Assembly (NCBI GenBank): GCA_016699935.1 | Contig: CP064992.1 | Span: 930,001 to 962,000, forward strand | DNA: 32,000 nucleotides | Origin: Candidatus Saccharimonadota bacterium | GTDB taxonomy: Bacteria; Patescibacteriota; Saccharimonadia; Saccharimonadales; UBA4665 | Reading direction: 5' to 3' | Notes under the pieces: generated by a model | Database searches by the model: none | Told to the model about the DNA's origin: nothing | The model's input: only the letters and a program-made list of their open reading frames with translations | Translations under genes and position numbers: made by a program | In this document: positions 2,891 to 25,011 of the stretch, piece by piece | How the letters are laid out: every line of letters begins with the position of its first letter | How positions within the stretch are numbered: the stretch's first letter is position 1

Positions 2891-5271
2891 TCAAGCACCA
2901 ATTGCCATGTACAGCTCACGCTGCAGTTCCAGATAGTCGCTTACTATTTCGTCAGCCGAGCCAAGGACTGAGGTAGCGTCACGCATAGTTTTGTATCGTA
3001 AACTCACGAGACTCGTGAGGTTCTGCATACTTAGCTCATTTTCGCCCTGTTTTTCATAAGTATCGAGGACAAACTTCACAAACTCACGCTCATTGTTGTC
3101 GAGTTGCTCCAGGTAATATTCGCGCACAATTCCGGCACGCTCGACGCGTGTCATTGTATCTTTGGCATAGGCAATGTAGCGTAGTACATCGTATACATCA
3201 CTTTCTTCTGCATCACAAAGCTGCTTAAGTGCTTGCAGTTTCTCCTCTTCAAAACCGCGCTCCGCCAAACCTTGCAGCAAAATTTCACGCGTGCGTGGAT
3301 CACACCACTGTTTACGCAAATCATCTTCGTCCTTAAAGAGCTCTGGTATTTGCCCAAACAATTTCTCCAAGAATTCATGTGGGCTCACGGCTCTCCCGTC
3401 CATATAGAATTTTGTATCGACTGAATATTTAATCTCGCGCTCCTTGCCGTCTCCTAGTCGAACAACCGTTTTTTGCTTCGGCTCTATAGGCACGTCAACA
3501 GCAACATCGCTACCGTCATATGCTGGCTCAGGCTCATCGGTCTCTATTTCGTCATCTTCCGGGTTACCTTGTACGACATCATCAACCACAATAGTCGCTG
3601 GCTCAGGCTCGACCACATCAGTGGTCTCAACTTCTTGCGGCTCGCCATCCCATTCGGGGTCCTCAAATTTAGTGTCGTTGCCATAAAAGTCTACAATCGT
3701 GAAATAATCTTTATCATCATATATGCGAGTACCACGCCCGACGATCTGCTTGAACTCTACCATACTACCAACGCCACGCATCAACACCACAAAACGGACA
3801 TTGCGGGCGTCTACGCCAGTACTGAGTTTACGACTTGTCGTGACTATGGTTGGCACTTGCTTTTCGTTATCACGAAATTCTTCAAGGTAGCTATCGCCAA
3901 GGGCACCTTCTGTAGAAGTTATACGAACACAATAATTACGACCGTCGCCCAGCGTTCCGGCTGGTTTATGTTTATTGATCGCATCCCGCATCATCGCAGC
4001 GTGCTTTTCATCATTACAAAACACGATTGTTTTTGATTTGGATTGATTTGTTCCAGCAGTATCTCCGCCATGCGCTCTTCGCGCTCCGGCAGATAAATCG
4101 CCTTGTTAAAATCACTCAGCGTATATTCGCGCGCCTCGTCCACTTCGCCACTTTCCACAAAATCTTGCGGGTTAAACACGTAGCGGTCCATAGTGGTAGT
4201 GATGCGCTTGACCTTAAAAGGTGTCAAAAATCCGTCTTCAATGCCTTGTCTGAGTGAGTAGGTGTAAACAGGATTACCAAAGTATTTGTAGGTGTCGATG
4301 TTGTCATCACGTTTCGGAGTAGCGGTCAGCCCTAGGTGGGTTGCGCCGTTAAAATGGTCGAGCACTGCCCGCCAGTTTCCTTCATTGCTTGCGCCGCCAC
4401 GGTGACACTCGTCTATGATGATAAGGTCAAAGTAGTCACTTGGGTAATCTCTAAAATACGGATTATCGACGGACCCCCCAGTCATCGCCTGGTAGATACT
4501 AAAGAACATACTACCATTTGTCGGAATCTTGCCCTTCTTTCGCACAGCTTCACCATTTATCCGTACCGCCATGTCGCCAAATGGCTCAAAGTCGCCCATA
4601 GCTTGCTCGACGAGTATATTACGATCAGCCAAGAACAATATGCGTGGCCGGCGTTCATCACCGCGCTTATTCCAACGCGCCTGGTATAGTTTCCATGCTA
4701 TTTGAAATGCTATGGTCGTTTTGCCCGTACCAGTTGCCAGCGTCAAAAGTACTCTGTTTTCATTACCAGAAATCGCCTTTACGGCTGCGTTTATGGCGTT
4801 TTCTTGGTAGTAGCGTGGTCGGTGTTTGATGATCTCGTACGGCTCAGTCAACGCGCGGTACTGCGCGTCATTAACATCGCTATACGTCATTACAAATAGG
4901 TCATCTGGGCTATTATAGCCGCTCACTTCTTCGCCACGGCCAGTCTTCATATCAAAGCAATAGATTCCGTGACCATTCGTACTATACACATAGCGTATCC
5001 CAAGGGTCGCCGCGTAGTCTTTCACTTGTTCTAGCCCGTCAGTAATTTCTTTGTCTTCGGCCTTCGCTTCGACTATGGCAAGTTTCTGATTTTTATAAAC
5101 AAGTACATAGTCGGCTTTTTTAGTTTTTCCGCGTTGCCCACTGCCTATCAGCCGGCCATCGGTAAATACATACTCCGACAATACAAGAGAGCCAGTAGTG
5201 ACATTTTGCCCCCAACCGCACTGGGTCAATTTTGGGTCGATCAGCTCCCGCCGGGTAGTCGCTTCGTTCAT
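2891..5271 (-). CDS. hsdR: type I restriction enzyme R subunit (HsdR), split by 1-nt indel at T5 run 4030-4034
   Basis: ORFs 3991..5271 and 2891..4024. N-terminal nuclease region (LAIVEAKAEDK), helicase motif I (TLATGTGKT), motif II (IIDECHR), then TIVFCNDEKHA and TSRKLSTGVDARNV. Restoring A6 gives NPNQK-TIVFC in one frame. Confidence 0.9.
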
Positions 5272-5287
5272 TACTACTTATTTTACA
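5199..5287. repeat. 89-bp direct repeat, copy A (functional hsdR start + upstream 16 nt)
   Basis: Aligns base for base with 6961-7049. There are 5 mismatches in the first 25 nt and the last 64 nt are identical. Confidence 0.9.
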
Positions 5288-5290
5288 GCA

Positions 5291-5695
5291 TTACAGAGAA
5301 AAGATGACACCGAGATCAACGAACTGATCTTTGATAACTTTCTTCCACTTTGCAGTTATATTTGGCCTGTCTATGTGTTCGCCTTCGGTAAACACGAATA
5401 GAACTCTCACAAGGTGTAGGTTTTCGTTTATATGCAAGATACACCTATTGCCAGACTTAGACGGACCGACTTTTGTACCTTCCACCGCGAAATCCAATTT
5501 TACCAACTTGTGTTCACCTACGCTGTTGATTAAATCGGCCTTCTTGATCCGTAGTAGCGCGTCAATACGCTTGCACATATCGTCGATGTCATCGCGAGTT
5601 TTGTCCCAATTGGATTTGTGTTTCTTTGCGAACGCCTTGATATAGTAACGCTCTGAAAAAGAATCGAATTCTACAGCGTAGTTCGAGGCTTCCAT
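5291..5695 (-). CDS. putative toxin partner of the Panacea-type antitoxin (RelE/ParE-like fold suspected)
   Basis: Intact 134-aa ORF that overlaps the upstream antitoxin by 25 nt. The motif KVGPSKSGNRCILHINENLHLVRVLFVF resembles the beta-core of RelE/ParE-type toxins. Confidence 0.55.
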   Translation of the reverse strand: MEASNYAVEFDSFSERYYIKAFAKKHKSNWDKTRDDIDDMCKRIDALLRIKKADLINSVGEHKLVKLDFAVEGTKVGPSKSGNRCILHINENLHLVRVLFVFTEGEHIDRPNITAKWKKVIKDQFVDLGVIFSL

Positions 5696-6396
5696 ATATG
5701 GTCCGGTTCTTCCTGGGTAATAAGTCCGTAAGGGATTGCCTCACCATCCCTACAGATCTGCCACGGCAATTGGTTATGAGTAAAGTCTACGATTGCCTCT
5801 GTATTGTAGCCTTTCCATACTTTACCAATCTTATCGATCATCCGCTTTTCATCTTTAGTAAGCTCACTGGCAGGTACTTCGCCATTTTCTGCTAAAGAGA
5901 GAAGCATAGCCTTGCCTTTATACTCTGGTGGGTTGATTATACCTTCTTCTTCTAGCTCATCAAGTGCGCGAAAATACACGTCCGCCACGGGCCCACGCGG
6001 TAACTTACGATAGGTCATACCGGACATCGGTGCTAGGTGATCGTAGTACCAGGTAAAATCAGCTAGGTAGACGAGCTTTGCAAGTTTCGTCTTTGTTATC
6101 TTCCCATCAGCATCCGCGCCGGCTTTAAGAGCGTTGAGAATAATTTGCTTATATTTTTTGACTGCTTCAAGCGTATTTGACAAAGTCGAAATCCCATCCG
6201 GTGCCCCAATCAAATCGCCCAATTCAACGCGCAACATAGCTGCCATTTTTTCTGCTTGCGATACAGTGATTTCTTTTTTGCCAGCCTCAATAAGGGCATA
6301 AGTCTGACGACTCATACCTAGTACCTCGGCTACTTGCTCCATCGTTAGCCCACGCGCTAGACGAGCACTTTCGAGATTCTTACCCACATTACTCAT
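5671..6396 (-). CDS. XRE-HTH + DUF4065 (Panacea domain) antitoxin
   Basis: Intact 241-aa ORF. N-terminal HTH (LTMEQVAEVLGMSRQTYALIEAGKKEITVSQAEKMAAML). DUF4065-like core (TKLAKLVYLADFTWYYDHLAPMSGMTYRKLPRGPV ... FTHNQLPW). Confidence 0.8.
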   Translation of the reverse strand: MSNVGKNLESARLARGLTMEQVAEVLGMSRQTYALIEAGKKEITVSQAEKMAAMLRVELGDLIGAPDGISTLSNTLEAVKKYKQIILNALKAGADADGKITKTKLAKLVYLADFTWYYDHLAPMSGMTYRKLPRGPVADVYFRALDELEEEGIINPPEYKGKAMLLSLAENGEVPASELTKDEKRMIDKIGKVWKGYNTEAIVDFTHNQLPWQICRDGEAIPYGLITQEEPDHIWKPRTTL

Positions 6397-6669: not shown

Positions 6670-6900
6670 ATGGCAGGCAAACAAGTCCACACTACCTACA
6701 GCAAGCAAGCTGGCAACTGGCGCAATGTTTCCGCTGGCTCAAGCCGACCGGCAAAGGTGTACGACACCAAGGTGCAGGCACAAACCGCTGGCCGCCAACA
6801 GGCGATCAACAACAAAACCGAGCATGTCGTTCACAATCAGAACGGCCAGATTGCTTCACGCAACAGCTACGGTGGCGATCCGCACCCACCAAAGGGCTAG
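6670..6900 (+). CDS. DUF2188 domain protein
   Basis: Intact 76-aa ORF with AGGAG upstream. The C-terminus NGQIASRNSYGGDPHPPKG matches the family hallmark ...SYGnDPfPPKG. Confidence 0.7.
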   Translation: MAGKQVHTTYSKQAGNWRNVSAGSSRPAKVYDTKVQAQTAGRQQAINNKTEHVVHNQNGQIASRNSYGGDPHPPKG

Positions 6901-8212
6901 GTCACATCACCGCCAAAAGAGGCACTCTCTATGAGGCCTCTTTGGTTTGCTAACTCATCGTGACATTCTAGCCCCAACCGCATTCGGTCAATTTTGGGTC
7001 GATCAGCTCCCGCCGGGTAGTCGCTTCGTTCATTACTACTTATTTTACACTCACTTTGAGAAAACGCTTGCGTCAGCAAGGATTGCTTTAGTGTGCGAAG
7101 CATACTAACTTTTGACTGATATTTTGCAATCAACGAAGATAACTTCGCAGAAATATCATCAAGTTTCTTTATGATCTCATCTTGATCTGATATCGATGGT
7201 AGCGTAAATGCATACGCAAACAAGTGAGGCCTATTCACTTTCGGCATACCGGCTCTATCTGAACCAGAAATGGCATATTGAGTAAAGTCATTTGATAATA
7301 GTAGATAATATAAGTAGTCTCGCCTTACCTCATTGGTGGGAAGAAGCGGGTAAATATCCGCGCTACACAAACCAGAAAAATCTGGTCGGACAACCTTTTT
7401 GAGGTATGGACGTATTTTGCTATACAAGACCATTGTTCCATCAAAAGGAAACTTACTAGAAATTAGCTTCTCTTCTTTCGCCATTTTTAAGTTGATTAGC
7501 TGCCCTGTTTCAGGCTCAATGTTCGCACCACCAACATGCAGGCACTCGTTATATGGCTCATATCGAGGATCAATTAATTTTGAGTCTATGGTGCAAACAT
7601 CTCCTAGACATTGTTCTTCACCTATTACATTTCTGAGAATCTCAGTGTATAACCGATAGTACAGAGTCCGAGTATATTGAATATTCTTCTCCGTCAACTC
7701 AATAGCCCGATCAATCTTCTCAAAAGCTGCGTCCAGCCGCTCTACCACCCGCCGTTGCTCTTCGAGCGATGGGAGATATATATCAAGTGATTGTAGTTTT
7801 GTTATTGTTAATGTGTCTACGGTCGTTCCGTTACTCAAGCTGCTCGAAAAATGCTGCTGATTTAAACCATTGGTTTACGTAGCCACTCGGTCAACATCAC
7901 TAGTTTTTTTCAGCCAAAGGACACTCGCGTCTTTAAAATAAAACTTCTCATTTGCCTGTACGATATAGTATTACCTATTGTCCCTATAGCGGTGATCATG
8001 ATGTCGCCTTCTGTTGGGACCCCGTTCTTATGCGAAAGATCATTGTATAAATCTTCAGAAATGTATAGTTCATTGTTTGCATTACCCGTTTTTGATAGCC
8101 TCGTAATTTCACGCCCACGATAAAACGGTATGCCCGAGCTTTTCCACTGTGATTTCAACACTCTTCTGCTAGAGCTAATGGTAAATGTGTCGCCAAGCTT
8201 CACAGTTTTCAT
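6897..8212 (-). CDS. hsdS: type I R-M specificity subunit (HsdS), two TRDs, at least 2 frameshifts; the last ~50 codons read through the hsdR remnant and are probably not native
   Basis: ORFs 7910..8212 and 6897..7838. Conserved spacer helices LPSLEEQRRVVERLDAAFEKIDRAIEL and LPSISDQDEIIKKLDDISAKLSSLIAKYQSKVSMLRTLKQSLLTQAF. Stops in the other two frames cluster at 7040-7055, just before the hsdR-remnant ATG. Confidence 0.85.
6913..6945 (+). terminator. weak hairpin downstream of the DUF2188 gene
   Basis: CCAAAAGAGGC-12 nt-GCCTCTTTGG (one bulged A) followed by TTTGC. Confidence 0.3.
6961..7049. repeat. 89-bp direct repeat, copy B (hsdR 5' remnant next to hsdS)
   Basis: See copy A. The repeat period is 1762 bp. 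Confidence 0.9.
6968..7033 (-). pseudogene. 21-codon remnant of the hsdR 5' end
   Basis: ATG 7033 reads MNEATTRRELIDPKLTECGWG then TAG. The true HsdR N-terminus is MNEATTRRELIDPKLTQCGWGQ. Confidence 0.85.
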
Positions 8213-9271
8213 TCGGAGTAAACTCCCTTTAATATTTCAAGCCTCGCTAATAGCCCGTCATACGTCATAATAATGTTTTTTCATCGCCTTACGAAAAAAC
8301 GAGAATGAGCGTCTTTTTGTCTTCATCCATTGATGAAGTATTGCGATCGCCAATCAACAAGATGCCCATGGGATCAAGACGATTTAGGTCAGAAAAGTCC
8401 GCCCGAGCATTGTCTGAAAGTCGTTAACGGCAACACGTATTTGATTCTCCATCTGGACAAGACTTCCGGTTAGCTGAGCAGACATGGAATAGCAGATATT
8501 CTCTCTTCCTTCATCGTCTCCTCTATATTGTCCGCCAACAAGCGGTGTTGTAGGAGGCTTTATTTCAACAACAGCAAAACTACCATTCGCACCATTTAAG
8601 AACAGCTGGTCTGTCGCTACGCCACCTTGGCCGTTTCTCCCACGCGTGTTCTTGCCGCCTACATATGTCTCGCCTTGCATATAGTAGAGCGGGAAATGAA
8701 AGATCTGTTGGATAATCCAGGAATTATTATCAAAATAATCCTGCCAAAAGGATTCAACCCTGTTTCCGAGGTTTTCCCGTATGAAATCTATTGCTGTCTG
8801 AAGCTTTGCAGTTGCAACAGCATTTTCTATGGAACGAAAATTATTAGCCTCAAGCTCTCTTAGTTTTCCGATGATCAGATCACGATTTGCACCATCGCTA
8901 ATTTGCAGAAGTATTCCTTCAGCATTGTTATCTGCGAGAGAAAAAGTTGTATCACCATATCGGTGTCCCCACTGCTCTAGCAAGGCCTTGATTCTTTCGA
9001 GGTTAGAGAATAATGTCGCCATGTCTTCACCACTGAGATTCAGTTCGTATGCCTCATCTCGATGGAGGGTTGTAATTGACCTGCCCTCGAATTCTTCCCA
9101 TGTCTCATTTCTACCCTTTTTTTCAAAGCGAAAGCCCCCGCGTAAGTGATTATCGGACGCATCAACCCATATTGGATAAAAAAATAATCTGGTTGAGCCG
9201 GTTTCATGTAGGGGTATCGGGCTAACATCCATAGTCCCTGCTGAAGTCGAATGAGTATTTATCTCAGGCAT
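8209..9271 (-). CDS. DUF4263 / Shedu (SduA)-like PD-(D/E)xK nuclease with unassigned N-terminal domain; C-terminal 60 codons reached through three homopolymer frameshifts, two traced to T6 8276-8281 and A6 8294-8299
   Basis: ORF 8384..9271. Motifs SFWQDYFDNNSWIIQQIF ... GGVATDQLFLNGANGSFAVVEIKPP ... SAQLTGSLVQMENQ. The continuation reads DPMGILLIGDRNT...IIIMTYDGLLARLE. Stop TGA overlaps the hsdS ATG (ATGA at 8209-8212). Confidence 0.55.
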
Positions 9272-9285
9272 ACTGAACCTTTAGC

Positions 9286-9848
9286 CTATTCTTGCTCATT
9301 TTTTTCTGCTTTGATTGTATTTAACACTTGCGCAAGCTTGTATGCACTAATATTCAAGATATCCATAATCGCAGCATTAGTGTGACCTTCACTCTTAAGC
9401 TGTTTGACGAGGTCTTTCCTTTTTTCATGCAAATTATCCTGAAATTCATAAAATTTCTGAGCTTCATACCATCCCAGGCTTTCATTCCAAATATTTGGAA
9501 TGTAGAAAGTGATTGTACGCGTGTTTCCTGCCTCATAATGATAACCAAGCAAGATCGTGATAATATCCAACGCATTCACAAATAGCTTTCTGTAGTCATC
9601 CTCGCTCTTTGCGGCACCAAGTTCTTTCTCTATACGCTCAAGGTAGAGTCTACATGCGCTCTTGAAATGACTATCTGCAATCAAATCATCGATATCTTGC
9701 CTGAGTTTTTTGACCAAAGTCTTCACATCTTTTTGAAATATTTTGGATTTTGGTATGCAGAAGCAAACCCATAATACTTGTCCCCAAAAACGTTTCGCAT
9801 CAACATTTCGGTACGCATTCCGTCGCTATAGTATCTAGATTCAGTCAT
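9286..9848 (-). CDS. hypothetical ~187-aa protein with C-terminal HTH-like segment; frameshift at T5 run 9730-9734
   Basis: GGAG lies 8 nt upstream of ATG 9848 (MTESRYYSDGMRTEML...YFKK). That piece joins ORF 9286..9726 if the A5 run is read as A6. The C-terminus is GHTNAAIMDILNISAYKLAQVLN. I recognise no family. Confidence 0.4.
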
Positions 9849-9870
9849 TATCTATACGTCTCCGAGACGA

Positions 9871-11332
9871 TTATTGTTCATAGGCTAAGGTCCTCAGTAT
9901 TTCAGCAACTTCTTTATCGATTTGCTTGATATCCTCTAAAATATCCTCTGGTGTTTTTAGTTCTTCGGCTTCTGGCGCGAAGGGGTTTTTGACACCTAGG
10001 TCGAAGGTGGTTTGGTCGAGGTCTTCGGCTTTGACCGTCCATGAGTTTTCACTGGTTTCTCGGGTTTTGAACTTTACCAGGAAATCGTCGAAGTCGTGAA
10101 TGTTCAGCGGATTGGTTTTACCGAGGTTGCGACTAGGGTTGAGTTGGTAGTACCAAATATCCCGCGTTGGTTCGCCTTTGCGGAAAAACAGCACCACGGT
10201 TTTGACGCCGGTCGAGCCAGTCGCGCTAAACACACCGCCTGGCAGGTCAAGGATGGTATGTAGGTTAAAGCCTTGCAGCAGCTCTTTACGAATCTTGCCC
10301 GTCGCGCCATTTGGCTCATTGGTCAGGAATGTGTTTTTATAACTATCGCCGCTTCACCGCCAGTACGAAGATTCTTCATGAAGTGCTGTAGAAATAGGTT
10401 TGCAGTTTCACGAGTCGGGATTTTGAAGTTGCGCTGAACTTCAGGGCGCTCATTGCCACCGAATGGTGGATTTGCCAGTATATAATCAAACCGATCTTTT
10501 CCTGAATGTCGCGCGTGTCTTCATTGAGCGTGTTAGCATGCACCATGTTTGGCGATTCTATGCCGTGCAAAATCATATTCATCGTGCCCAGTAGGTATGG
10601 CTCTGGCTTTTTATTCTTGGCAAAGAACGTACGCTCTTTTAGAAAAGACAGTTCGTTCGCCATTTTCCTGGCTGCGTAGGTAGGCATAACTTTCGGTTAA
10701 AAACCCTGCCGATCCTGCTGCGCCGTCATAGATAGTTTTGCCCAGTTTTGGCTGCACCGCCTGAACCATAGCCTGTATAAGTGGTCGCGGCGTATAAAAC
10801 TCACCGCTGCGCCCTGCTCCACCCATAAGCTTCAAACGATCTTCATATAATGCAGATAACTGGTCAAGCTCATCCTGAGTCTGAAATTGAAGATTGTCGA
10901 TGATATCTATCACTTCCCGGAGGTTGCGCCCGCTCTGAATCTTATTTGTGATTTCACCAAATATTTCGCCGATTTTGTAGGTCAGCGTTTTGGGGTCATT
11001 TTCGGCATTTTTGAACGAGCGAAGGTATGGGAAAAGCTGGTGATTCACAAAGCCCGTCAGATCATCGCCTGTCATTTGCGCAGATATATCGGGTGAACCA
11101 TCTGCTTTCTTTGGTGCCGCCCATATGTCCCACTGGTGTTCGGTCTTAAACAACGGCTGGTACGCAATCTGGTGCAGTGTCGCTTCGTCCTTGCGCACCT
11201 CTTCAAGGTCGTCAAGATATTTCAAAAAAGAATCCATGACATCTGTGCCATGTAGTCATTCGCACCATTTGTCCCCGCATCCTCAAACAGGATATTGTCT
11301 ATGCGTTTAAATTCAGCTCTAATATCAGCCAA
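9871..11332 (-). CDS. hsdM: type I R-M DNA methyltransferase subunit (HsdM), at least 3 frameshifts
   Basis: Pieces 10611..11237, 10376..10687 and 9871..10233/10104..10319. The N-terminal HsdM domain (MSWILF|LKYLDD) is restored by adding one T at the run 11224-11229. SAM motif GEFYTPRPL...IYDGAAGSAGFL. Catalytic NPPFG is read as ANPPFGGNE in the shifted frame near 10450. Candidate TTG start at 11332 after AAGGGGG. Confidence 0.9.
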
Positions 11333-11507
11333 GAGGACCCCCTTCTCTGTTCTCAGTATACCCTCTCTGCCCCTGTTTTCTACGCTCTACTCGCTTGACT
11401 CCATTCTTTGGCGGCGTTCGCCCATGGTCTCGCCTTCGTATGACCAGTAGGCAGTACCAGAGACAACATTACTATAGCCGAGTACTTGTTGTGCAGCGGT
11501 GGAATGA

Positions 11508-11640
11508 GAGGACAGTCCTGTAACAGGTGAAGAAACTCATTATTTCGTTTGGGATGGGGTGAAAGATAGGGGTGGGTTTTACCGCGTTTGGTTTTGGTGG
11601 CTGGGACGCCCTGCTCCGTTGCTGCGACATACTATGTAGA
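11508..11640 (+). repeat. G-run repeat, copy C2 (left arm + core + right arm)
   Basis: GAGGACAGTCCTGTAACAGGTGAAGAAA...CGTTTGGGATGGGGTGAAAGATAGGGGTGGGTTTTACCGCGTTTGG...GGCTGGGACGCCCTGC. Confidence 0.85.
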
Positions 11641-11672
11641 TCCGAGTTCAAACAGACGAGGAGCATGAGGGG

Positions 11673-12191
11673 TTATTTGCCGAAGTTGGATTTGATGTAT
11701 ATTATGGCGAGGCCGATGCTGGCGGTTATGGTGGCGGTGATGAGTGAGCGTAGTTTTTGGTAGCCACTCAGCCTAGCTGCCCAGTAGCTAAAAACAAAGA
11801 GTACCGAAACGCAGTACAAAAAGGTGTAGTTAAAGGCCGTGGCAACAGAGTATAGGCTAGTTTCGCTCACAAGCAGGATGACTATAGGCACTAGGCAAAA
11901 CGTCGCAACCGCAACTGTATCGTCAAAGATTTCGCGGCGCTCTTGCTTGTTGAGGGCGCGTTTGTTTTTGATGGTAAAGCCTATCAGTTCGGCGTAGTCC
12001 TCGGCAACGATAATCGCCAGGACGGCGATAAATGCGTTTAAGGCTGCCCAATACCCGGTGCTAATGCCGCTGGCATCGAGCCCAACAAGTGTTACGAAAA
12101 GCAAAATCGTCCCATACAAAACCTTGGCAGCGTGTTGGTTGCCGTAGTGCTGGTTCATAAAAGTCATTACTCGAGATTTCATAAGATCCAA
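11673..12191 (-). CDS. integral membrane protein (4-5 TM), family not recognised
   Basis: Intact 172-aa ORF with alternating hydrophobic stretches. Confidence 0.55.
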   Translation of the reverse strand: MDLMKSRVMTFMNQHYGNQHAAKVLYGTILLFVTLVGLDASGISTGYWAALNAFIAVLAIIVAEDYAELIGFTIKNKRALNKQERREIFDDTVAVATFCLVPIVILLVSETSLYSVATAFNYTFLYCVSVLFVFSYWAARLSGYQKLRSLITATITASIGLAIIYIKSNFGK

Positions 12192-13875: not shown

Positions 13876-14139
13876 CTAGACTTTGCCGGTGCGTTTGCGG
13901 TGTGGGCAGCCCTGCCAGCAACAGGGGCGGCGCATACCGCTGGACATTTTGGAAAGACCGACTTCTATGCGGCGCTGGCGGGTTTCGGCTTTTTTGGCCT
14001 CCTCGACCCAGCAAATCCATTCGTTGCGAGCCAGTGGTGTTATAGCCTGCCACAGTAGCAGGACTTTTGGAGTCGAACTAATCGCCTCCCGAAAATCCGG
14101 GGGCAGTTTATGGACAGTACCTTCAGAGAGTTTTGACAT
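13876..14139 (-). CDS. YdeI/OmpD-associated (OmdA) family protein
   Basis: Intact 87-aa ORF. Motifs ITPLARNEWICWVEEAKKAETRQRRI and RRPCCWQGC. Paralogue at 15684..15960. Confidence 0.7.
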   Translation of the reverse strand: MSKLSEGTVHKLPPDFREAISSTPKVLLLWQAITPLARNEWICWVEEAKKAETRQRRIEVGLSKMSSGMRRPCCWQGCPHRKRTGKV

Positions 14140-15683: not shown

Positions 15684-15960
15684 ATGTCTTCTGCTAAAAT
15701 TGAAAGCGGAACAGTACACCCCTATGCCAGCAGACCTAAAAGGCATGCTTCAAGCAGACAAGAAAGTTTTGATGGCTTGGAATGACATAACACCGCTAGC
15801 ACGCAACGAATTTATCTGCTGGGTCATAGATGCCAAAAAACCAGAGACACGGGCAAAACGCATACTGGTCGCAAGAGACAAACTAACCCGCGGCGAACGT
15901 CGCCCCTGCTGCTGGATCGGCTGCATACACCGCCCAGCAAACCTCCCAGCCCGTCCATAA
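15684..15960 (+). CDS. YdeI/OmpD-associated (OmdA) family protein, paralogue of 13876..14139; frameshift at C4 run ~15717-15720
   Basis: ATG 15684 gives MSSAKIESGTVH, which parallels MSKLSEGTVH of the paralogue. ORF 15700..15960 then has ITPLARNEFICWVIDAKKPETRAKRI and RRPCCWIGC. Confidence 0.65.
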
Positions 15961-18698: not shown

Positions 18699-19064
18699 CT
18701 ATTCACCGTCTTTGGCGCGTTGGACAATAATCTTAGTCGCAATCATCGCCATTAAGGCTATAGGGATGGCTGAGTCTAGCTGGTGTCTAAGGCTTTGAAT
18801 GATTAAGGCAGTTATAAGTACAAGCGCACCGACAAAATAGGCTGAACGACTAGCAAGTGCTTGGTTTTGCATTTCGCGCTCGTCTTCGGGTTGTTCGCGC
18901 CACAGTAGTACCAAAAATGTAGCAATCAGCCCCAGCACGACTGCCAGTATCAGCATTTGCAAGCTCGAAGGCATGACAAAGGTTTTTGGAGCGATGGCTA
19001 GTAGCGTGATGACGGCTAGGCCGAGTAGCAGCACGACGTCGAGTAATTGTTTATATTTTTTCAT
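18699..19064 (-). CDS. small membrane protein (4 TM) co-transcribed with the XRE regulator
   Basis: Intact 121-aa ORF whose start overlaps the 3' end of 19051..19275. Confidence 0.5.
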   Translation of the reverse strand: MKKYKQLLDVVLLLGLAVITLLAIAPKTFVMPSSLQMLILAVVLGLIATFLVLLWREQPEDEREMQNQALASRSAYFVGALVLITALIIQSLRHQLDSAIPIALMAMIATKIIVQRAKDGE

Positions 19065-19275
19065 AACGAAATATCTCCTCCACCTTACGCCCTAGTATAG
19101 CGGCAATTCGCAGTGCAAGCAGCACACTTGGCACGTAATTGCCTTTTTCTATGGCGATAATAGTTTGACGCGTCGCTTGGACCTTTTCGGCCAGGTCATC
19201 TTGGGTAATCTTAAGAGCGATCCGTGTCTCACGTACCTTATTCACCACTGTATGTTCTTTGTCTCGTATAAACAT
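19051..19275 (-). CDS. XRE/Cro-type HTH transcriptional regulator
   Basis: Intact 74-aa ORF: LKITQDDLAEKVQATRQTIIAIEKGNYVPSVLLALRIAAIL. Confidence 0.8.
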   Translation of the reverse strand: MFIRDKEHTVVNKVRETRIALKITQDDLAEKVQATRQTIIAIEKGNYVPSVLLALRIAAILGRKVEEIFRYEKI

Positions 19276-19367
19276 AATGTAAGCTCAACCGTACATATTG
19301 TAACACAATCAAGATTAAAGTGGAATAAAATGAAACCTGATTCTCAAAACTGTTTCTCATGTACTTT

Positions 19368-19432
19368 TGTCATTCCCGCGAAGGCGGGAATCCATTCCAT
19401 TTATCTGGATCCCAGCCTTCGCTGGGATGACA
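19368..19432. repeat. 65-bp palindromic mini-element with TGTCAT...ATGACA termini
   Basis: TGTCATTCCCGCGAAGGCGGGAATCC...GGATCCCAGCCTTCGCTGGGATGACA. It holds two perfect hairpins (ATTCCCGC/GCGGGAAT and TCCCAGC/GCTGGGA). A related element lies at 31764-31862. Confidence 0.7.
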
Positions 19433-19444
19433 TCGTGGGGTTTT

Positions 19445-19613
19445 GAGGCTCAGGTAATGACAGTCCTCTTACAGATGATTAAACTCAAGAATACGTTTGG
19501 GATGGGGTAAAAGATAGGGGTGGGTTTAACCGCATTTTTCTAATATTGTCTGCTGGGTCGGCTGCGCCTCTTTCATAAAACCATGCTCGTAGTAAGCTCC
19601 TGCTCGTGGTTTT
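19445..19613 (+). repeat. G-run repeat, copy C4 (left arm + core + long right arm)
   Basis: ...ATGACAGTCCTCTTACAGATGATTAAACTCAAGAATACGTTTGGGATGGGGTAAAAGATAGGGGTGGGTTTAACCGCATTT...CTGCTGGGTCGGCTGCGCCTCTT...CATGCTCG. Confidence 0.85.
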
Positions 19614-19677
19614 ATTTCAGTTGCACCAGAATACCTGTGACATCTGGCTCTAGAACCCAACAGCCAAAACCAAACAA

Positions 19678-19702
19678 AAAACCCCTCCTATACGAGGGTT
19701 TT
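19678..19702 (-). terminator. rho-independent terminator downstream of the DUF2075 gene
   Basis: On the minus strand: AAAACCCTC-GTATAG-GAGGGGTTTT followed by TTGTTTGGTTTTGG. Confidence 0.65.
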
Positions 19703-19789
19703 GTATTTAGCTCAGCTTGTTGGTCGCGGATGATTAACAGGTCAAAATCCTACGAACGGTACTGAAAGTTATTTTGTCCAATACTCGTA

Positions 19790-21749
19790 TCAATAACCAG
19801 TGTCTCTTGATTGTCCAACTAGCTCTTCTATTCCAATAGATTTGAAGTAATTAAATGTAGAGTCATAAAACTCTTGTTTCCTCGTTGCATCAGGGGATAA
19901 TTACCGTTCGGCAAGAAAATAATCATACCTTGTCTAGCCCTTGTTAAGAGCACGATAAGCATTTTTGCTTCTTGTTGATTTGATATGTTATTTTGCCATA
20001 TTATGCCTTTGAGCTGGTACTTTTTGAATTAAAATATTGCCAATCAGCTACATTAAAACGCATGTCAGCGTCCCAGCAAACTAGTGAATAATCAAGCTCT
20101 AACCCTGGCATACAAACTCCGAGGCTGCATCCTCTAAGAAATATGAGCTTTTGTTGTTTTCTTTTTCGCCTAAGAAATAGTGGACTTCGTTAATACCCTT
20201 ATTGCTATCTATGGCAAATGGTATCAGTCTTTGCGCTCTACTGGTGGCTAGCATTCCTGGACGCTCTGTACCTTTTTGTTTGTTTTCTTATCCAATCTTT
20301 AGCAATTTTTAGATCGCGAGTTATTTTTATTGGATATGCGTCTTCTAGCTCTTATAGATATTAGCCGCAGAGGCGTCGATATCTAGCAGCGCTTTTACAA
20401 AAATTAGACAATTTTCAGCTCTAAATGAACGCATGGAAGTCGCTAGATGGAGTTCGTGATATTTTTGTGCATTATTTGGCACATTCGAAACATTATATTC
20501 AGAATCGACTAAGTTCGGCGATATTGCAATTTGCCAGTCCGCCGGGACAGCATCAACCCATGCACTAATGCCAGCTTCGCCTTTTTTTTGAGCTCTTGTC
20601 CACCGCCAACAAGGCAGACTATACACGCCCAATCTTTGTGTCTATCCAGGGTATGAATTAAAAACCAGATTCAGATTCGCCATGAACCCACTGCCTTTTC
20701 TTTCTATTCATCCAATTTGTGATAGTATTACCATCCCAGGCTCTCTGAGCTTCATCAAAGATTGCCACATGTTCGCTGGGTGGATTTTCGTCATTAATGT
20801 ACTCATCGCGATAGTGGTGAACTATTTGTATAAACGATTTAACTTTATTTCTGGCATAACCTATCCGAATACCATTTTTGTCCTTCTCGTCTCTCGCCAG
20901 CGCTTCAGTCAGTACGTTTACAAGTGGCCCGTTGCCAGACAATAGTACGGCATGATCTTCTGAATTTGAGTCTCTTTTTGGGTTGCTATATTTAATCCAA
21001 CAAGAGTTTTCCGGCTCCAGGAACGCCTGTAACAAAAATAATTGTCTTTTTGTTGTTTTGCATTTGCAGTCATCAATTATTTCATTTATTTTCTTGCACG
21101 TTGTAGTTATGTTGTCACCTGCCTCGCTTCGAGTGATGTCTTCAACGCTGTGGCCTGAATACAATTCTCTTGCTGCTTCGATTATTGTCGGAGTCGGTTT
21201 GTACGGTGACTCTTCCCATCCTTCAGCTCCGTTACCGGTCAAATATTCAATAGATCCCACATAATCTTTTAAATGAATACTGCCCAAACAGTCAGCGCCT
21301 TCAATATTTCGTGGCTCACCCCTATATTCTGATACTACTAATGCCGGGAATATATCGGCTTTATGTGAACCTAAATGAAAATTTTTTAGCTCAAGCATAT
21401 AGTCAATTACTTGGTCTATGTCTTTAGCTATAAATTTATTTTGTCCAATTTTAAATTCTAATAAAACAATGTGCGGACTATCAGAATGTATTAACAAAAT
21501 TACGTCTATTCTCCTCCCCATACGAGGAATAACAAATTCTAAAAAAATAGTGGCATTATCAATATCGCATAGTTGGTCTTTTAGGATTTCAATTTCGGAA
21601 CGCCACGTTTCAAATTGTGGTTGCTCGACATTAAATCCATCGCGAATACTGCCCTGTGATAATTGGCCAATAATAGAATCATTGTTTTGTTGAAGAAAAT
21701 CAGCTACTGATGATTTGTACCAACTTGCATTTAAGAGCCTTGTGGCCAC
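19790..21749 (-). CDS. DUF2075-type protein (N-terminal PD-ExK-like nuclease module + P-loop ATPase/helicase-like domain), many frameshifts in the C-terminal two thirds
   Basis: ORF 20658..21749 has [25 protein letters not shown] and [16 protein letters not shown] 20345..20632 and shifted fragments down to 19790 continue it ([52 protein letters not shown]). The true start may be ATG 21761 (MSKK) if the A5 run is A6. Confidence 0.65.
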
Positions 21750-21826
21750 TTTTTACTCATAAACACATTCTACTATAGATCGTTTAATATTTGGTAAATC
21801 AGGTCATGGAGCTCTGCTGGGGCTAT

Positions 21827-21965
21827 GAGGACAGTTCTCTAACACATTAAGAAAATGTGAATACGTTTGGGATGGGGAGAAAGACAGGGGTGGGTTTAAC
21901 CGCATTTGGCAAGTTTCGGCTGCTGGGACGGCTACGCCTCTTCCGCTGCGGCATGCTCGTTAACC
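21827..21965 (+). repeat. G-run repeat, copy C5 (left arm + core + right arm)
   Basis: GAGGACAGTTCTCTAACACATTAAGAAAATGTGAATACGTTTGGGATGGGGAGAAAGACAGGGGTGGGTTTAACCGCATTTGG...GCTGCTGGGACGGCTACGCCTCTT...CATGCTCG. Confidence 0.85.
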
Positions 21966-22086
21966 TTTGGCTACCTGCGCGTGCCCACGCTACACCGCAG
22001 CACTTTCGCTCCGCAAAAGAACTAGTTCTCTCGCCATGCAGGCGAAAACAAATAGAGGAAGTTATAACTAAAAAAAGAAGACCTAG

Positions 22087-22557
22087 TTATAAATTAATAT
22101 CTCTCTTATGTGTCAATTCTACTAGCCTGTCTATATAAACTCGTTTCCAATACCACATTGAAACCCAGCCAAATAGAGGTTTAGCAATAACACGAAGCAT
22201 GATGTTTGATTTCGAGAGATCATATTCATAAGAATATGTGATCTTTGTACCTTCTTTCGCATCTTTCATTAAAAATTCTTCATGTCCAGTCGCGTTGAAT
22301 GTATGATTTGTGTTTTCTGAAATATAGCCTTTTCCAGGAACAAGAGTTGTCTGCATAGTTACTGGTATCGGAGGAATCCCAAGGGATTTAGCTTCTGCAT
22401 GGATTAATAGGTTGTTACCCTCTCTTTTAACAATCTTTACTGAATGAGCTACTTTTGGGAAATTTTTAGGCATATTTTCAAAATCAGTAGTAATCTTATA
22501 CAGAGATTCCCTCGGGGCATTAACTATCCATGAGGCTTTGAGGTGTATTTTATTCAT
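22087..22557 (-). CDS. SRPBCC (START/polyketide-cyclase-like) family protein
   Basis: Intact 156-aa ORF: ASWIVNAPRESLYKITTDFENMPKNFPKV... The alternating beta pattern is typical of the family. The gene is AT-rich. Confidence 0.6.
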   Translation of the reverse strand: MNKIHLKASWIVNAPRESLYKITTDFENMPKNFPKVAHSVKIVKREGNNLLIHAEAKSLGIPPIPVTMQTTLVPGKGYISENTNHTFNATGHEEFLMKDAKEGTKITYSYEYDLSKSNIMLRVIAKPLFGWVSMWYWKRVYIDRLVELTHKRDINL

Positions 22558-22650
22558 ATATCTCTTCGATTATCTCACAGAATATATGAATAATCCTTAG
22601 CAAATTCGGCGACTGGCATTATCGGTTTCAATTCCACTCTGGGTATACAA

Positions 22651-22682
22651 AAAGTCAGAACCATTTTCACAGTTCTGACTTT
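22651..22682 (-). terminator. bidirectional hairpin terminator (inside ~90-bp repeat 22615-22703)
   Basis: AAAGTCAGAAC-10 nt-GTTCTGACTTT with T-runs on both strands. The same hairpin and flanks recur at 24010-24099. Confidence 0.65.
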
Positions 22683-22782
22683 GTCTTTTACGGCTTGGCT
22701 CACAACGATAAAGGCAGTTATAGGCATGATTAAGCAAGACATTGCTTATGAAATGTAGGAATTATAGTAATTATCCTAATTT

Positions 22783-23967
22783 TCAAATTCTTATAAATTC
22801 TAAACCAGCTGCCTCTAATATTGGTAATGTCGAGAGTGGGTTAGTACGAAATTCTGCATGTATATCAGCCAGTCTATCGATAAGATCTTGCCTTCGAGCT
22901 GTTTTCATGACTGTAATCCATGCCGCCATGAAGTTTGCTCTATCCTTTGGAATAATCCCATGTTCAACAGCATTATCTATCGGTTCCCACAACATTCCTT
23001 CTAAAACTAATTGTGCAGAGTATTTAGCAACTTTTTCATCGGTAATACCAAACGGATGCGAAGAGAAAAACTGATCAAGAACAGTGCCAGAGTAAGATAA
23101 GTGCCCCAGCACATCTGCTTTACCTGCGAAAACTCTAAGTGCTTCAATCCCTAGGTTTCTGTAAATATGAACCATTGTATGATGTCCAGTACCGTAAACA
23201 ATATTTACTGGTAAGCGTCCGTCATCAGTATTAATTCTTGCTCGTTGAGCTAGGGCACGTACTTTATCGGAGTTTTCTGTTCCAAAACTTGAAGATCCTT
23301 CCTCGACTGCATCTATTTGTTCAAGCGTTTCCAGAACCTGTTTAGTACTTGTAAGCTCTCTGACGGCGTTAGAGTACATTACGAGACGGCCTTTTTGACC
23401 TTGTTCTTCTAACAATTGACCTAGTTCTTTTTGGCGTAATTCTCGTCCAGGAATTGACCTATTCAAGAATTGCTGATCGTAATCGTTACCCATAAGTGCA
23501 TCTAATAACCTACGAGAGTAGTGTCTAATATCAACAGGAGCAATTAGACTGCTTCTCGCCAACAAGCCTCGATCACGCCAATACCCGAAATCCTCTCTGG
23601 GTTGTGGTGGTAGATAAAATGGCATTCTTGGTGGTTGTACATTGAACTGCATATCAAATGCATTGCCTACCGAGTATCCGAACAATTTACTGTCTGCAAT
23701 CTCAGCATCACCTGCATTTTCAACAAAGGAAATGAATGGAGAGCCGCCAGCTTCAATTGATTGAGCTGCGTTTATTGAATTGCCGTGTGCATTAAAAACA
23801 AACAATAAATGATAGCGTGCGTTAATTGTAATAACACGTTCAGGACTAGCTAGAACGGTTACTTGATCATGAAGCTGTTCGGCAGCTGATTGAAACGCGT
23901 TGACACGATCTTCAGGATTTAGATCCTCTCGAAATAAACGAAGAATATCTTTAGGGGTATTTGACAT
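22783..23967 (-). CDS. hypothetical 394-aa protein, family not recognised
   Basis: Intact ORF 22783..24048. I prefer Met 23967 (MSNTPKDILRLF) because the upstream 27 codons lie inside the terminator repeat. Weak reminders of Tiki/TraB-type motifs (FVFNAHGNS, IVYGTGHHTMVH), speculative only. Confidence 0.5.
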   Translation of the reverse strand: MSNTPKDILRLFREDLNPEDRVNAFQSAAEQLHDQVTVLASPERVITINARYHLLFVFNAHGNSINAAQSIEAGGSPFISFVENAGDAEIADSKLFGYSVGNAFDMQFNVQPPRMPFYLPPQPREDFGYWRDRGLLARSSLIAPVDIRHYSRRLLDALMGNDYDQQFLNRSIPGRELRQKELGQLLEEQGQKGRLVMYSNAVRELTSTKQVLETLEQIDAVEEGSSSFGTENSDKVRALAQRARINTDDGRLPVNIVYGTGHHTMVHIYRNLGIEALRVFAGKADVLGHLSYSGTVLDQFFSSHPFGITDEKVAKYSAQLVLEGMLWEPIDNAVEHGIIPKDRANFMAAWITVMKTARRQDLIDRLADIHAEFRTNPLSTLPILEAAGLEFIRI

Positions 23968-24047
23968 TCTTATAAAATAACTCAATTTATTTGTAGATAG
24001 CAAGCATATGCATAATCGTTCGGTTTCAATTCTATCTTTGTTATACA

Positions 24048-24936: not shown

Positions 24937-25011
24937 TGGCTCCGGGGACTGGGCTCGAACCAGCGACCTAGTCGTTAACAGCGACCCGCTCTACCACTGA
25001 GCTACCCCGGA
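24937..25011 (-). tRNA. tRNA-Asn (anticodon GTT), CCA encoded
   Basis: Reverse complement: TCCGGGG TA GCTC AGTGGTA GAGC G GGTCG CTGTTAA CGACT AGGTC GCTGG TTCGAGC CCAGT CCCCGGA G CCA. This folds as a 75-nt cloverleaf by hand, with two G-U pairs. Confidence 0.9.

Follow-up and report, generated by a model that had tools for sequence, protein, structure and literature searches.

A predicted Shedu nuclease gene and an undescribed helix-turn-helix family gene as separate passengers of a type I restriction–modification operon in a Saccharibacteria genome

Introduction

Defense genes embedded in type I restriction–modification (R-M) operons are an established theme. The principle of "guilt by embedding" was formalized by Payne et al. 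for type I R-M, BREX, DISARM, and Hma, and DarTG2 and TgvAB are characterized systems embedded in type I R-M. Shedu, described as a single-gene system (Gu et al., PMC10441436; Loeff et al., 10.1101/2023.08.10.552762), belongs to the same theme: 602 of 5,499 Shedu genes were found inside R-M systems, type I included (Gu et al., PMC10441436). Type 1A Shedu is the class with an sPC4/Whirly-type N-terminal domain, for which single-stranded nucleic acid has been proposed as the cue (Gu et al., PMC10441436), and the SduA protein of Escherichia coli senses free DNA ends (Loeff et al., 10.1101/2023.08.10.552762). Here, we analyze a stretch of 32,000 nucleotides (nt) from a Candidatus Saccharimonadota bacterium (assembly GCA_016699935.1, contig CP064992.1, positions 930,001 to 962,000), hereafter the window, in which two genes, orf187 and sduA, lie between hsdM and hsdS of a type I R-M operon. 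A sequence-only reading of this DNA had proposed that the two genes form a cassette and that no such pairing had been described. For Shedu together with R-M the latter statement was wrong, because the association is already published.

The locus shares with PrrC/EcoprrI, DarTG2, TgvAB, and the phage-defense candidates (PDCs) of Payne et al. an effector gene nested among the hsd genes and probably transcribed together with them. Nesting of this kind was found in the window and in four other loci (L017, L018, L020, and L021). However, PrrC is an ABC-ATPase anticodon nuclease physically masked by EcoprrI, whereas the effector of the window is a predicted DNA nuclease with its own sensor domain; the PrrC architecture was rejected for it because SduA_N and SduA_C were the only domains found (Pfam). 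As in the R-M–encoded Shedu systems of Gu et al. (PMC10441436), the presence of a Shedu gene in a type I R-M operon suggests a complementary defense. In contrast to those systems, a whole SduA clade (61–80% identity) here occupies one fixed slot 5′ of hsdS. The account that we favor, and consider moderately probable, is that of a Saccharibacteria type I operon with an EcoEI-like HsdR that carries three independent passengers: an orf187-family gene, a Shedu gene, and a Panacea module.

Results and Discussion

The orf187 and SduA genes are separate passengers rather than a dedicated pair or a new two-gene system, because each recurs without the other (gene orders in Table 1). The proposed two-gene cassette was found only in the window and in L007, a locus from a close relative, and this is the one other place where orf187–SduA synteny recurs. 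Five orf187 loci lack SduA (L001, L004, L005, L009, and L016), and four SduA loci lack orf187 (L017, L018, L020, and L021). The SduA homologues in the latter four loci have 61–76% identity, and a search of their neighboring genes with the orf187 family profile (hmmsearch) returned no orf187-family member.

These counts also bear on the idea that orf187 and SduA make up a two-component Shedu resembling KELShedu (KELA plus KELB, PMC12577705), with a small DNA-binding partner tuning the nuclease. KELShedu is a precedent in that its DUF4263 nuclease gene directly follows a small gene with a putatively DNA-binding product; orf187 carries a helix-turn-helix (HTH), and it is adjacent to sduA, with a spacer of 14 nt in the window and 26 nt in L007. 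We nevertheless regard a two-component system as very unlikely: none of the four other loci with a close SduA has an orf187-family gene, and five of the seven orf187 loci are without SduA. The proteins differ as well. KELA is a 110-amino acid (aa) WYL-like Sm/SH3 β-barrel that is essential for KELB and binds to a short β-sheet N-terminal domain of KELB, whereas orf187 is a 187-aa HTH protein that is predicted to be all-helical and does not covary with SduA, and the SduA N terminus is of Type 1A. Because the AlphaFold2 (AF2) model is all-helical and KELA is a β-barrel (PMC12577705), orf187 was rejected as a KELA analogue.

The larger of the two genes had been called a DUF4263/Shedu nuclease with a D...VVEIK signature of the PD-(D/E)xK type. 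Both parts of that call were borne out: the frame-corrected product matches PF14082 (SduA_C) with 66.5 bits (cutoff 27) and the PADLOC SduA model PDLC00399 with an E value of 4.6e-61, and it contains the signature. The accompanying statement that the N-terminal domain matches nothing did not hold, as this domain scores 36.9 bits against Pfam SduA_N (PF21407; cutoff 27) and also aligns to Bacillus cereus SduA (PDB ID code 8TI8). Taken alone, the N-terminal domain matches 8TI8 at 2.5e-11, a comparison made at the level of sequence. Because of the SduA_N and 8TI8 matches, the N-terminal domain is assigned as the standard Type 1A one. At full length, the corrected protein matches 8TI8 with an E value of 2e-35 (phmmer), residues 3–346 aligning against 6–374. 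Across an 18-sequence alignment, E173, D221, and K238 never vary, nor does Q273 of motif IV, and E236 is nearly invariant; the catalytic motifs (motif I E, motif II D, motif III ExK, and motif IV Q) line up with those of B. cereus. The window protein is thus collinear over its full length with SduA of B. cereus B4264, comprising an N-terminal domain, a linker, and a DUF4263 core with the catalytic motifs kept. It differs in that the similarity is that of a remote homologue and in that its gene comes from a bacterium of the candidate phyla radiation (CPR) and lies in a type I R-M operon, overlapping hsdS and predicted to be translationally coupled to it. On these comparisons, the window nuclease is a canonical Type 1A Shedu and is predicted to be catalytically competent.

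By homology, SduA would be a homotetrameric PD-(D/E)xK nuclease kept inactive by its sPC4/Whirly-type N-terminal domain. Infection-associated nucleic acid would switch the enzyme on, and DNA would then be cut. Such a nuclease may complement restriction by adding a sequence-independent layer against phages that escape it. Elsewhere, on a Priestia plasmid, a distant, full-length Type 1A Shedu gene stands alone.

The sequence-only reading had described orf187 as HTH-tailed and without a known match, and our searches agree: no family covers the protein, and a C-terminal HTH is predicted. No family was found in Pfam, PADLOC, PHROG, or NCBIfam, PADLOC giving no match at E ≤ 0.05, and orf187 is not among the PADLOC phage-defense candidates (PDC/HEC, Payne et al.). 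Six relatives came from a word-indexed search of 5.8 billion proteins. When 1.84 billion cluster representatives were searched exhaustively with a profile, a wider family of 167 clusters emerged, mostly of 165–250 aa and matching over nearly the full profile length. Homologues are 47–83% identical. The AF2 model consists of helices only, with a predicted local distance difference test score (pLDDT) of 91; it was built from a 57-sequence alignment and used in place of a model from 6 sequences that reached a pLDDT of 58. Foldseek searches of this model against PDB and BFVD gave no significant match (best E value 0.06–0.1), the top ranks being sigma factors with a template modeling score (TM-score) of ∼0.2 and E ≥ 0.06.

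Sub-threshold HTH matches to HTH_23, Sigma70_r4, and sigma70-extracytoplasmic function (ECF) profiles were present in 7–14 of the 57 family members; Sigma70_r4 was matched by 7, Sigma70_r4_2 by 5, and TIGR02937 by 14 (best 7.3e-5), all below threshold. An hhalign comparison of the family with E. coli RpoE was limited to 21 columns, in the HTH of region 4, at a probability of 6.9%, the RpoE query being an approximate sequence. Identification of orf187 as an ECF/sigma-70 factor was rejected beyond the HTH, because no profile aligned outside that segment, region 2 was not found, and the Foldseek TM-score was ∼0.2. The top matches of the orf187 profile to PDB sequences were to designed helical repeat proteins and covered the HTH-like segment only, so we treated them as spurious; among PDB chains there was no sequence match beyond generic HTHs. 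We conclude that orf187 is a new, predicted helical domain with a putative sigma-4/LuxR-like C-terminal HTH and represents an undescribed family, not a sigma factor.

RptR (PMC12255303) is likewise small, a putative transcription factor with genetic ties to type I R-M operons in which defense genes are embedded. However, RptR is dimeric, has 79 aa, and stands at the island head in Gammaproteobacteria, whereas orf187 has 187 aa and lies between hsdM and hsdS on CPR-type metagenomic contigs. Given these differences in size and position, and since no RptR chain came up when PDB sequences were searched with the profile, orf187 was rejected as an RptR. Judged by its HTH and its position, orf187 is most likely the operon's DNA-binding regulator or accessory protein and not a partner of Shedu.

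The orf187 family is so far confined to metagenomes. A tblastn search of plasmid and phage collections found no family member, and neither did a scan of viral contigs with one distant sub-family. At the DNA level, similarity searches gave no match in E. coli genomes (near) or in plasmids (distant). A scan of genome contigs with the close-clade alignment added one locus, L010, at a contig end and with no hsdM upstream. The distant family members L011–L013 are not beside hsdM, and so the R-M linkage is limited to the close clade. The starts of the homologues in L005 (∼5383–5430) and L009 (∼517–567) are called too far downstream; in both, the conserved N terminus HYSDGMSTEMLMRNV is encoded upstream, a few bases past the hsdM stop.

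All close orf187 homologues with visible context lie between hsdM and hsdS. The SduA clade is placed more narrowly still: at all five loci with visible context (the window, L017, L018, L020, and L021), sduA immediately precedes hsdS, and the stop codon of the one overlaps the start codon of the other. We found no description of such a regularity, a clade-wide fixed slot directly upstream of hsdS that is kept across two HsdM families. Both passengers have moved between unrelated type I systems while keeping their slot, because their identity is high where HsdM identity is low. The orf187 proteins of L001 and L007 are 83% identical next to HsdMs that share 29.5%, and SduA proteins are 61–66% identical across HsdM families that are only 24–30% identical.

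Other cargo recurs too. A DUF3800 gene lies just after hsdM in both L001 (4222–4869) and L020 (2289–2924), and a similar small protein with an N-terminal transmembrane (TM) segment is encoded in L009 (1068–1523) and L020 (3605–4153), with a weak PADLOC match to AbiN (6.5e-4). These recurring passenger types suggest that the operons draw on a common, exchangeable pool of cargo at gene junctions prone to recombination. The SduA operon of L018 lies among genes of the Replic_Relax, TraG-D_C, and DUF87 types (646–1431 and 9587–12004), and this SduA copy is probably on a conjugative or mobilizable element.

An alternative, suggested by analogy in the sequence-only reading and lent some support by the fixed slot, is a PrrC-like coupling, in which this Shedu clade would depend on type I R-M: the Hsd complex would keep the nuclease latent until a phage inhibits restriction, or the nuclease would process DNA ends made by HsdR. 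The placement of sduA between hsdM and hsdS in five of five visible loci, against the background frequency of Shedu genes in any R-M system (602/5,499), its conservation across divergent HsdM families, and the sensing of free DNA ends by E. coli SduA all fit a coupling. We still consider it unlikely. The two-domain architecture is the same as that of B. cereus SduA, with no extra domain for docking to Hsd proteins, and Shedu is described as acting as a single gene. Unrelated passengers (DUF3800, RhuM, DUF4145, and GmrSD) also occupy these operons, suggesting a hotspot of recombination, and the sample consists of five related metagenomic loci. A wider proposal, which we hold to be rather improbable, is that the CPR Type 1A Shedu clade is an obligate, translationally coupled type I R-M passenger acting with R-M (through HsdR-end degradation or PrrC-like latency), and that the orf187 family is a new sigma-4-type HTH class in the hsdM–hsdS slot that regulates the composite operon.

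A third module lies between hsdS and hsdR. A 90-nt direct repeat, D1, brackets a segment with orf134, an HTH_3–Panacea gene, and a DUF2188 gene, and the 3′ end of hsdS reads into the duplicated copy of the hsdR start. Because the 5′ end of hsdR is duplicated around this module, the repeat resembles a trace left when recombination at gene ends inserted a cassette. For orf134, no Pfam or PADLOC match was found. Outside the module, ∼1.5 kb past the hsdR stop, a further SocA/Panacea-like open reading frame (ORF) at 952–1389 on the minus strand scores below threshold (21.8 bits against a cutoff of 25.7); it is the first of two small minus-strand ORFs there, the other being at 1256–1594.

Under the favored account of three independent passengers, the orf187-family gene would be a passenger just after hsdM and may regulate or assist the operon as a DNA-binding protein. 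The sduA gene would be a passenger immediately upstream of hsdS, its stop overlapping the hsdS start, and a Panacea-antitoxin–type module would be a passenger between hsdS and hsdR, flanked by the 90-nt duplication of the hsdR start. Several points weigh against this account. The strict slot of SduA next to hsdS (5/5 versus a background of ∼11%) hints at more than passive hitch-hiking. The HTH resemblance from which a role of orf187 is read is weak, and an operator motif for orf187, sought upstream of hsdM and in the spacers, was not found; upstream of hsdM in five orf187-bearing loci, no k-mer of at least 8 nt was common to three or more. The loci sampled are few, and every one is metagenomic. 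Lastly, both orf187 and sduA are disrupted as deposited, and NCBI lists truncated products for them, one of 146 aa and the other of 295 aa.

The disruptions take the form of frameshifts. Over its 563 nt, orf187 switches frame at an A5 run (9730–9734), and its longest real ORF encodes 146 aa (9286–9726). In sduA, which spans 1063 nt, the reading frame stays open for 295 aa, to 8384, and has to be corrected at three places, a G-run (∼8399–8404), an A5 run (8314–8318), and an A6 run (8276–8281); in the assembly as deposited, sduA is not an intact ORF. Breaks occur throughout the operon: hsdM has at least five, hsdS and hsdR are each split, and hsdM, orf187, sduA, hsdS, and hsdR together have at least 11 disruptions. 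Three of the four break sites in orf187 and sduA fall in homopolymers of at least 5 nt, which make up 4.3% of the region. The corrected hsdM, orf187, and sduA paths contain no in-frame stops, and their conserved motifs are intact; a three-frame translation of hsdM makes the frame switches visible, with its motifs intact. Corrected orf187 aligns end to end with an intact 187-aa homologue at 78% identity, and corrected SduA aligns end to end with intact homologues of 350–354 aa at 61–80% identity. Because the breaks lie at homopolymers, in-frame stops are absent, and homologues match end to end, the frameshifts most likely arose as homopolymer errors in long-read assembly rather than through decay of the genes. 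The public annotation is truncated because these frameshifts split the genes: the uncorrected fragments of 146 aa and 295 aa match NCBI proteins of a Candidatus Saccharibacteria metagenome-assembled genome (MAG) at 99% and 100% identity, respectively.

The same disruptions could be read as real, for instance as slippage at homopolymers in a reduced genome, leaving a decayed and nonfunctional island of R-M and defense genes. The at least 11 frame disruptions in the deposited assembly and the truncated proteins in public annotation are what such decay would leave, but we think it quite unlikely. After a first frameshift, real decay is expected to bring further substitutions and nonsense codons, whereas the indels cluster at homopolymers and the corrected hsdM, orf187, and sduA paths keep their catalytic or motif residues without stop codons. 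The source is also a single-contig MAG of 1.23 Mb, which is typical of long-read assemblies.

All hsd genes are on the minus strand, and by their Pfam matches hsdM, hsdS, and hsdR form one type I R-M operon (Table 1). One hsdR fragment carries HSDR_N, ResIII, and SWI2_SNF2, and the other carries Helicase_C and EcoEI_R_C. The earlier coordinates and junctions from hsdM through orf187 and the nuclease gene to hsdS proved exact, each one, against the ORF list and the raw sequence. The spacer between orf187 and sduA contains an AAAGG Shine–Dalgarno-like element, and the stop of sduA and the start of hsdS overlap as ATGA. The earlier argument for co-transcription fits this spacing, the nuclease gene lying inside a type I R-M operon: because the spacers are short or negative, orf187 and sduA are most likely co-transcribed with hsdM and hsdS. 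The palindrome in the hsdM–orf187 spacer is perfect; lacking a T-tract after it, it does not resemble a terminator on the coding strand, and no conservation of it was found in the closest relative, L007. The HsdM of L007 matches the hsdM of the window at 60–77% identity across frames (tblastn, E value 9e-171). The GC content of orf187, sduA, and hsdS (0.38–0.44) is below that of hsdM and hsdR (0.47–0.48), in keeping with exchangeable cargo.

Table 1. Operon features in the window, in window coordinates, and gene orders at related loci
Feature or locus	Coordinates	Strand	Description	Basis
hsdM	9871..11332	−	Type I methylase, at least five frame segments in the assembly; TAA end at 9871	Pfam N6_Mtase on three fragments
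hsdM–orf187 spacer	9849..9870	−	22 nt; carries the 13-nt palindrome CGTCTCGGAGACG at 9857–9869	Sequence reading
orf187	9286..9848	−	187-aa protein, predicted all-helical, C-terminal HTH, one frameshift; ATG at 9848, TAG end at 9286	Homologues and AF2 model
sduA	8209..9271	−	Predicted Type 1A Shedu nuclease, 354 aa after three frame corrections; ATG at 9271, TGA at 8211–8209	Pfam, PADLOC, PDB 8TI8
hsdS	6897..8212	−	Specificity subunit, split into two ORFs; ATG at 8212–8210	Pfam Methylase_S on both fragments
Direct repeat D1, copy 2	6960..7049	.	90 nt, duplicate of the hsdR 5′ end; 94% identity, spacing 1762 nt
DUF2188 gene	6670..6900	+	In the apparently inserted segment	Pfam DUF2188 54.7 bits, cutoff 22
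HTH_3 + SocA/Panacea gene	5671..6396	−	Antitoxin-like	Pfam SocA_Panacea 54.1 bits, HTH_3 51.4 bits
orf134	5291..5695	−	Overlaps the Panacea gene, candidate toxin partner	ORF list
Direct repeat D1, copy 1	5198..5287	.	90 nt, spans the real hsdR start at 5271
hsdR	2891..5271	−	EcoEI/type IB-like, split into two ORFs	Pfam
L007			hsdM-orf187-SduA
L001/L002			hsdM-DUF3800-orf61-orf183-orf208-orf284(TM)-hsdS-GmrSD-hsdR; orf187 homologue, without SduA
L004			hsdM-orf179-orf154-hsdS; orf187 homologue, without SduA
L005			hsdM-orf169-hsdS; orf187 homologue directly before hsdS
L009			hsdM-orf167-orf151; orf187 homologue, without SduA
L016			hsdM-orf278-orf204-hsdS, 423-kb groundwater contig; orf187 homologue, without SduA	Metagenome scan
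L017 and L018			hsdM-SduA-hsdS-hsdR
L020			hsdM-DUF3800-180-182-241-SduA-hsdS-hsdR
L021			hsdM-RhuM-153-94-DUF4145-SduA-hsdS-hsdR

The main value of the analysis is corrective: the nuclease is an ordinary Shedu by prediction, the pairing is no system, and the annotation is split by what are most likely assembly frameshifts. What remains new is that the HTH family of orf187 had not been described and that the SduA clade obeys a positional rule in the type I operons of CPR bacteria. The case indicates that the type I R-M operons of these tiny-genome bacteria serve as scaffolds that collect and exchange defense passengers, the pool here including Shedu, DUF3800, GmrSD, RhuM, and Panacea modules as well as orf187. 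Two regularities can be tested across R-M families that are ∼25–30% identical: the Shedu clade 5′ of hsdS and the close orf187 clade between hsdM and hsdS. If either proves functional and not the product of a hotspot, the PrrC paradigm of R-M–coupled second-line defense would extend to DNA nucleases, and a new type of regulator would be added to type I systems, about whose transcriptional control little is known.

Additional Features of the Window

Away from the operon, a low-GC stretch at 19000–24000 (0.36–0.42 versus 0.46 for the window) lies beside tRNA-Asn (24937–25011). It holds a fragment with a Schlafen-group-3/DUF2075-type helicase domain (20658–21749) and large ORFs without a Pfam match, and may be a second defense or mobile island. 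Two paralogous small genes of the OmdA/YdeI type (PF13376, 62–64 bits) lie ∼1.6 kb apart, at 13876–14139 on the minus strand and 15700–15960 on the plus strand.

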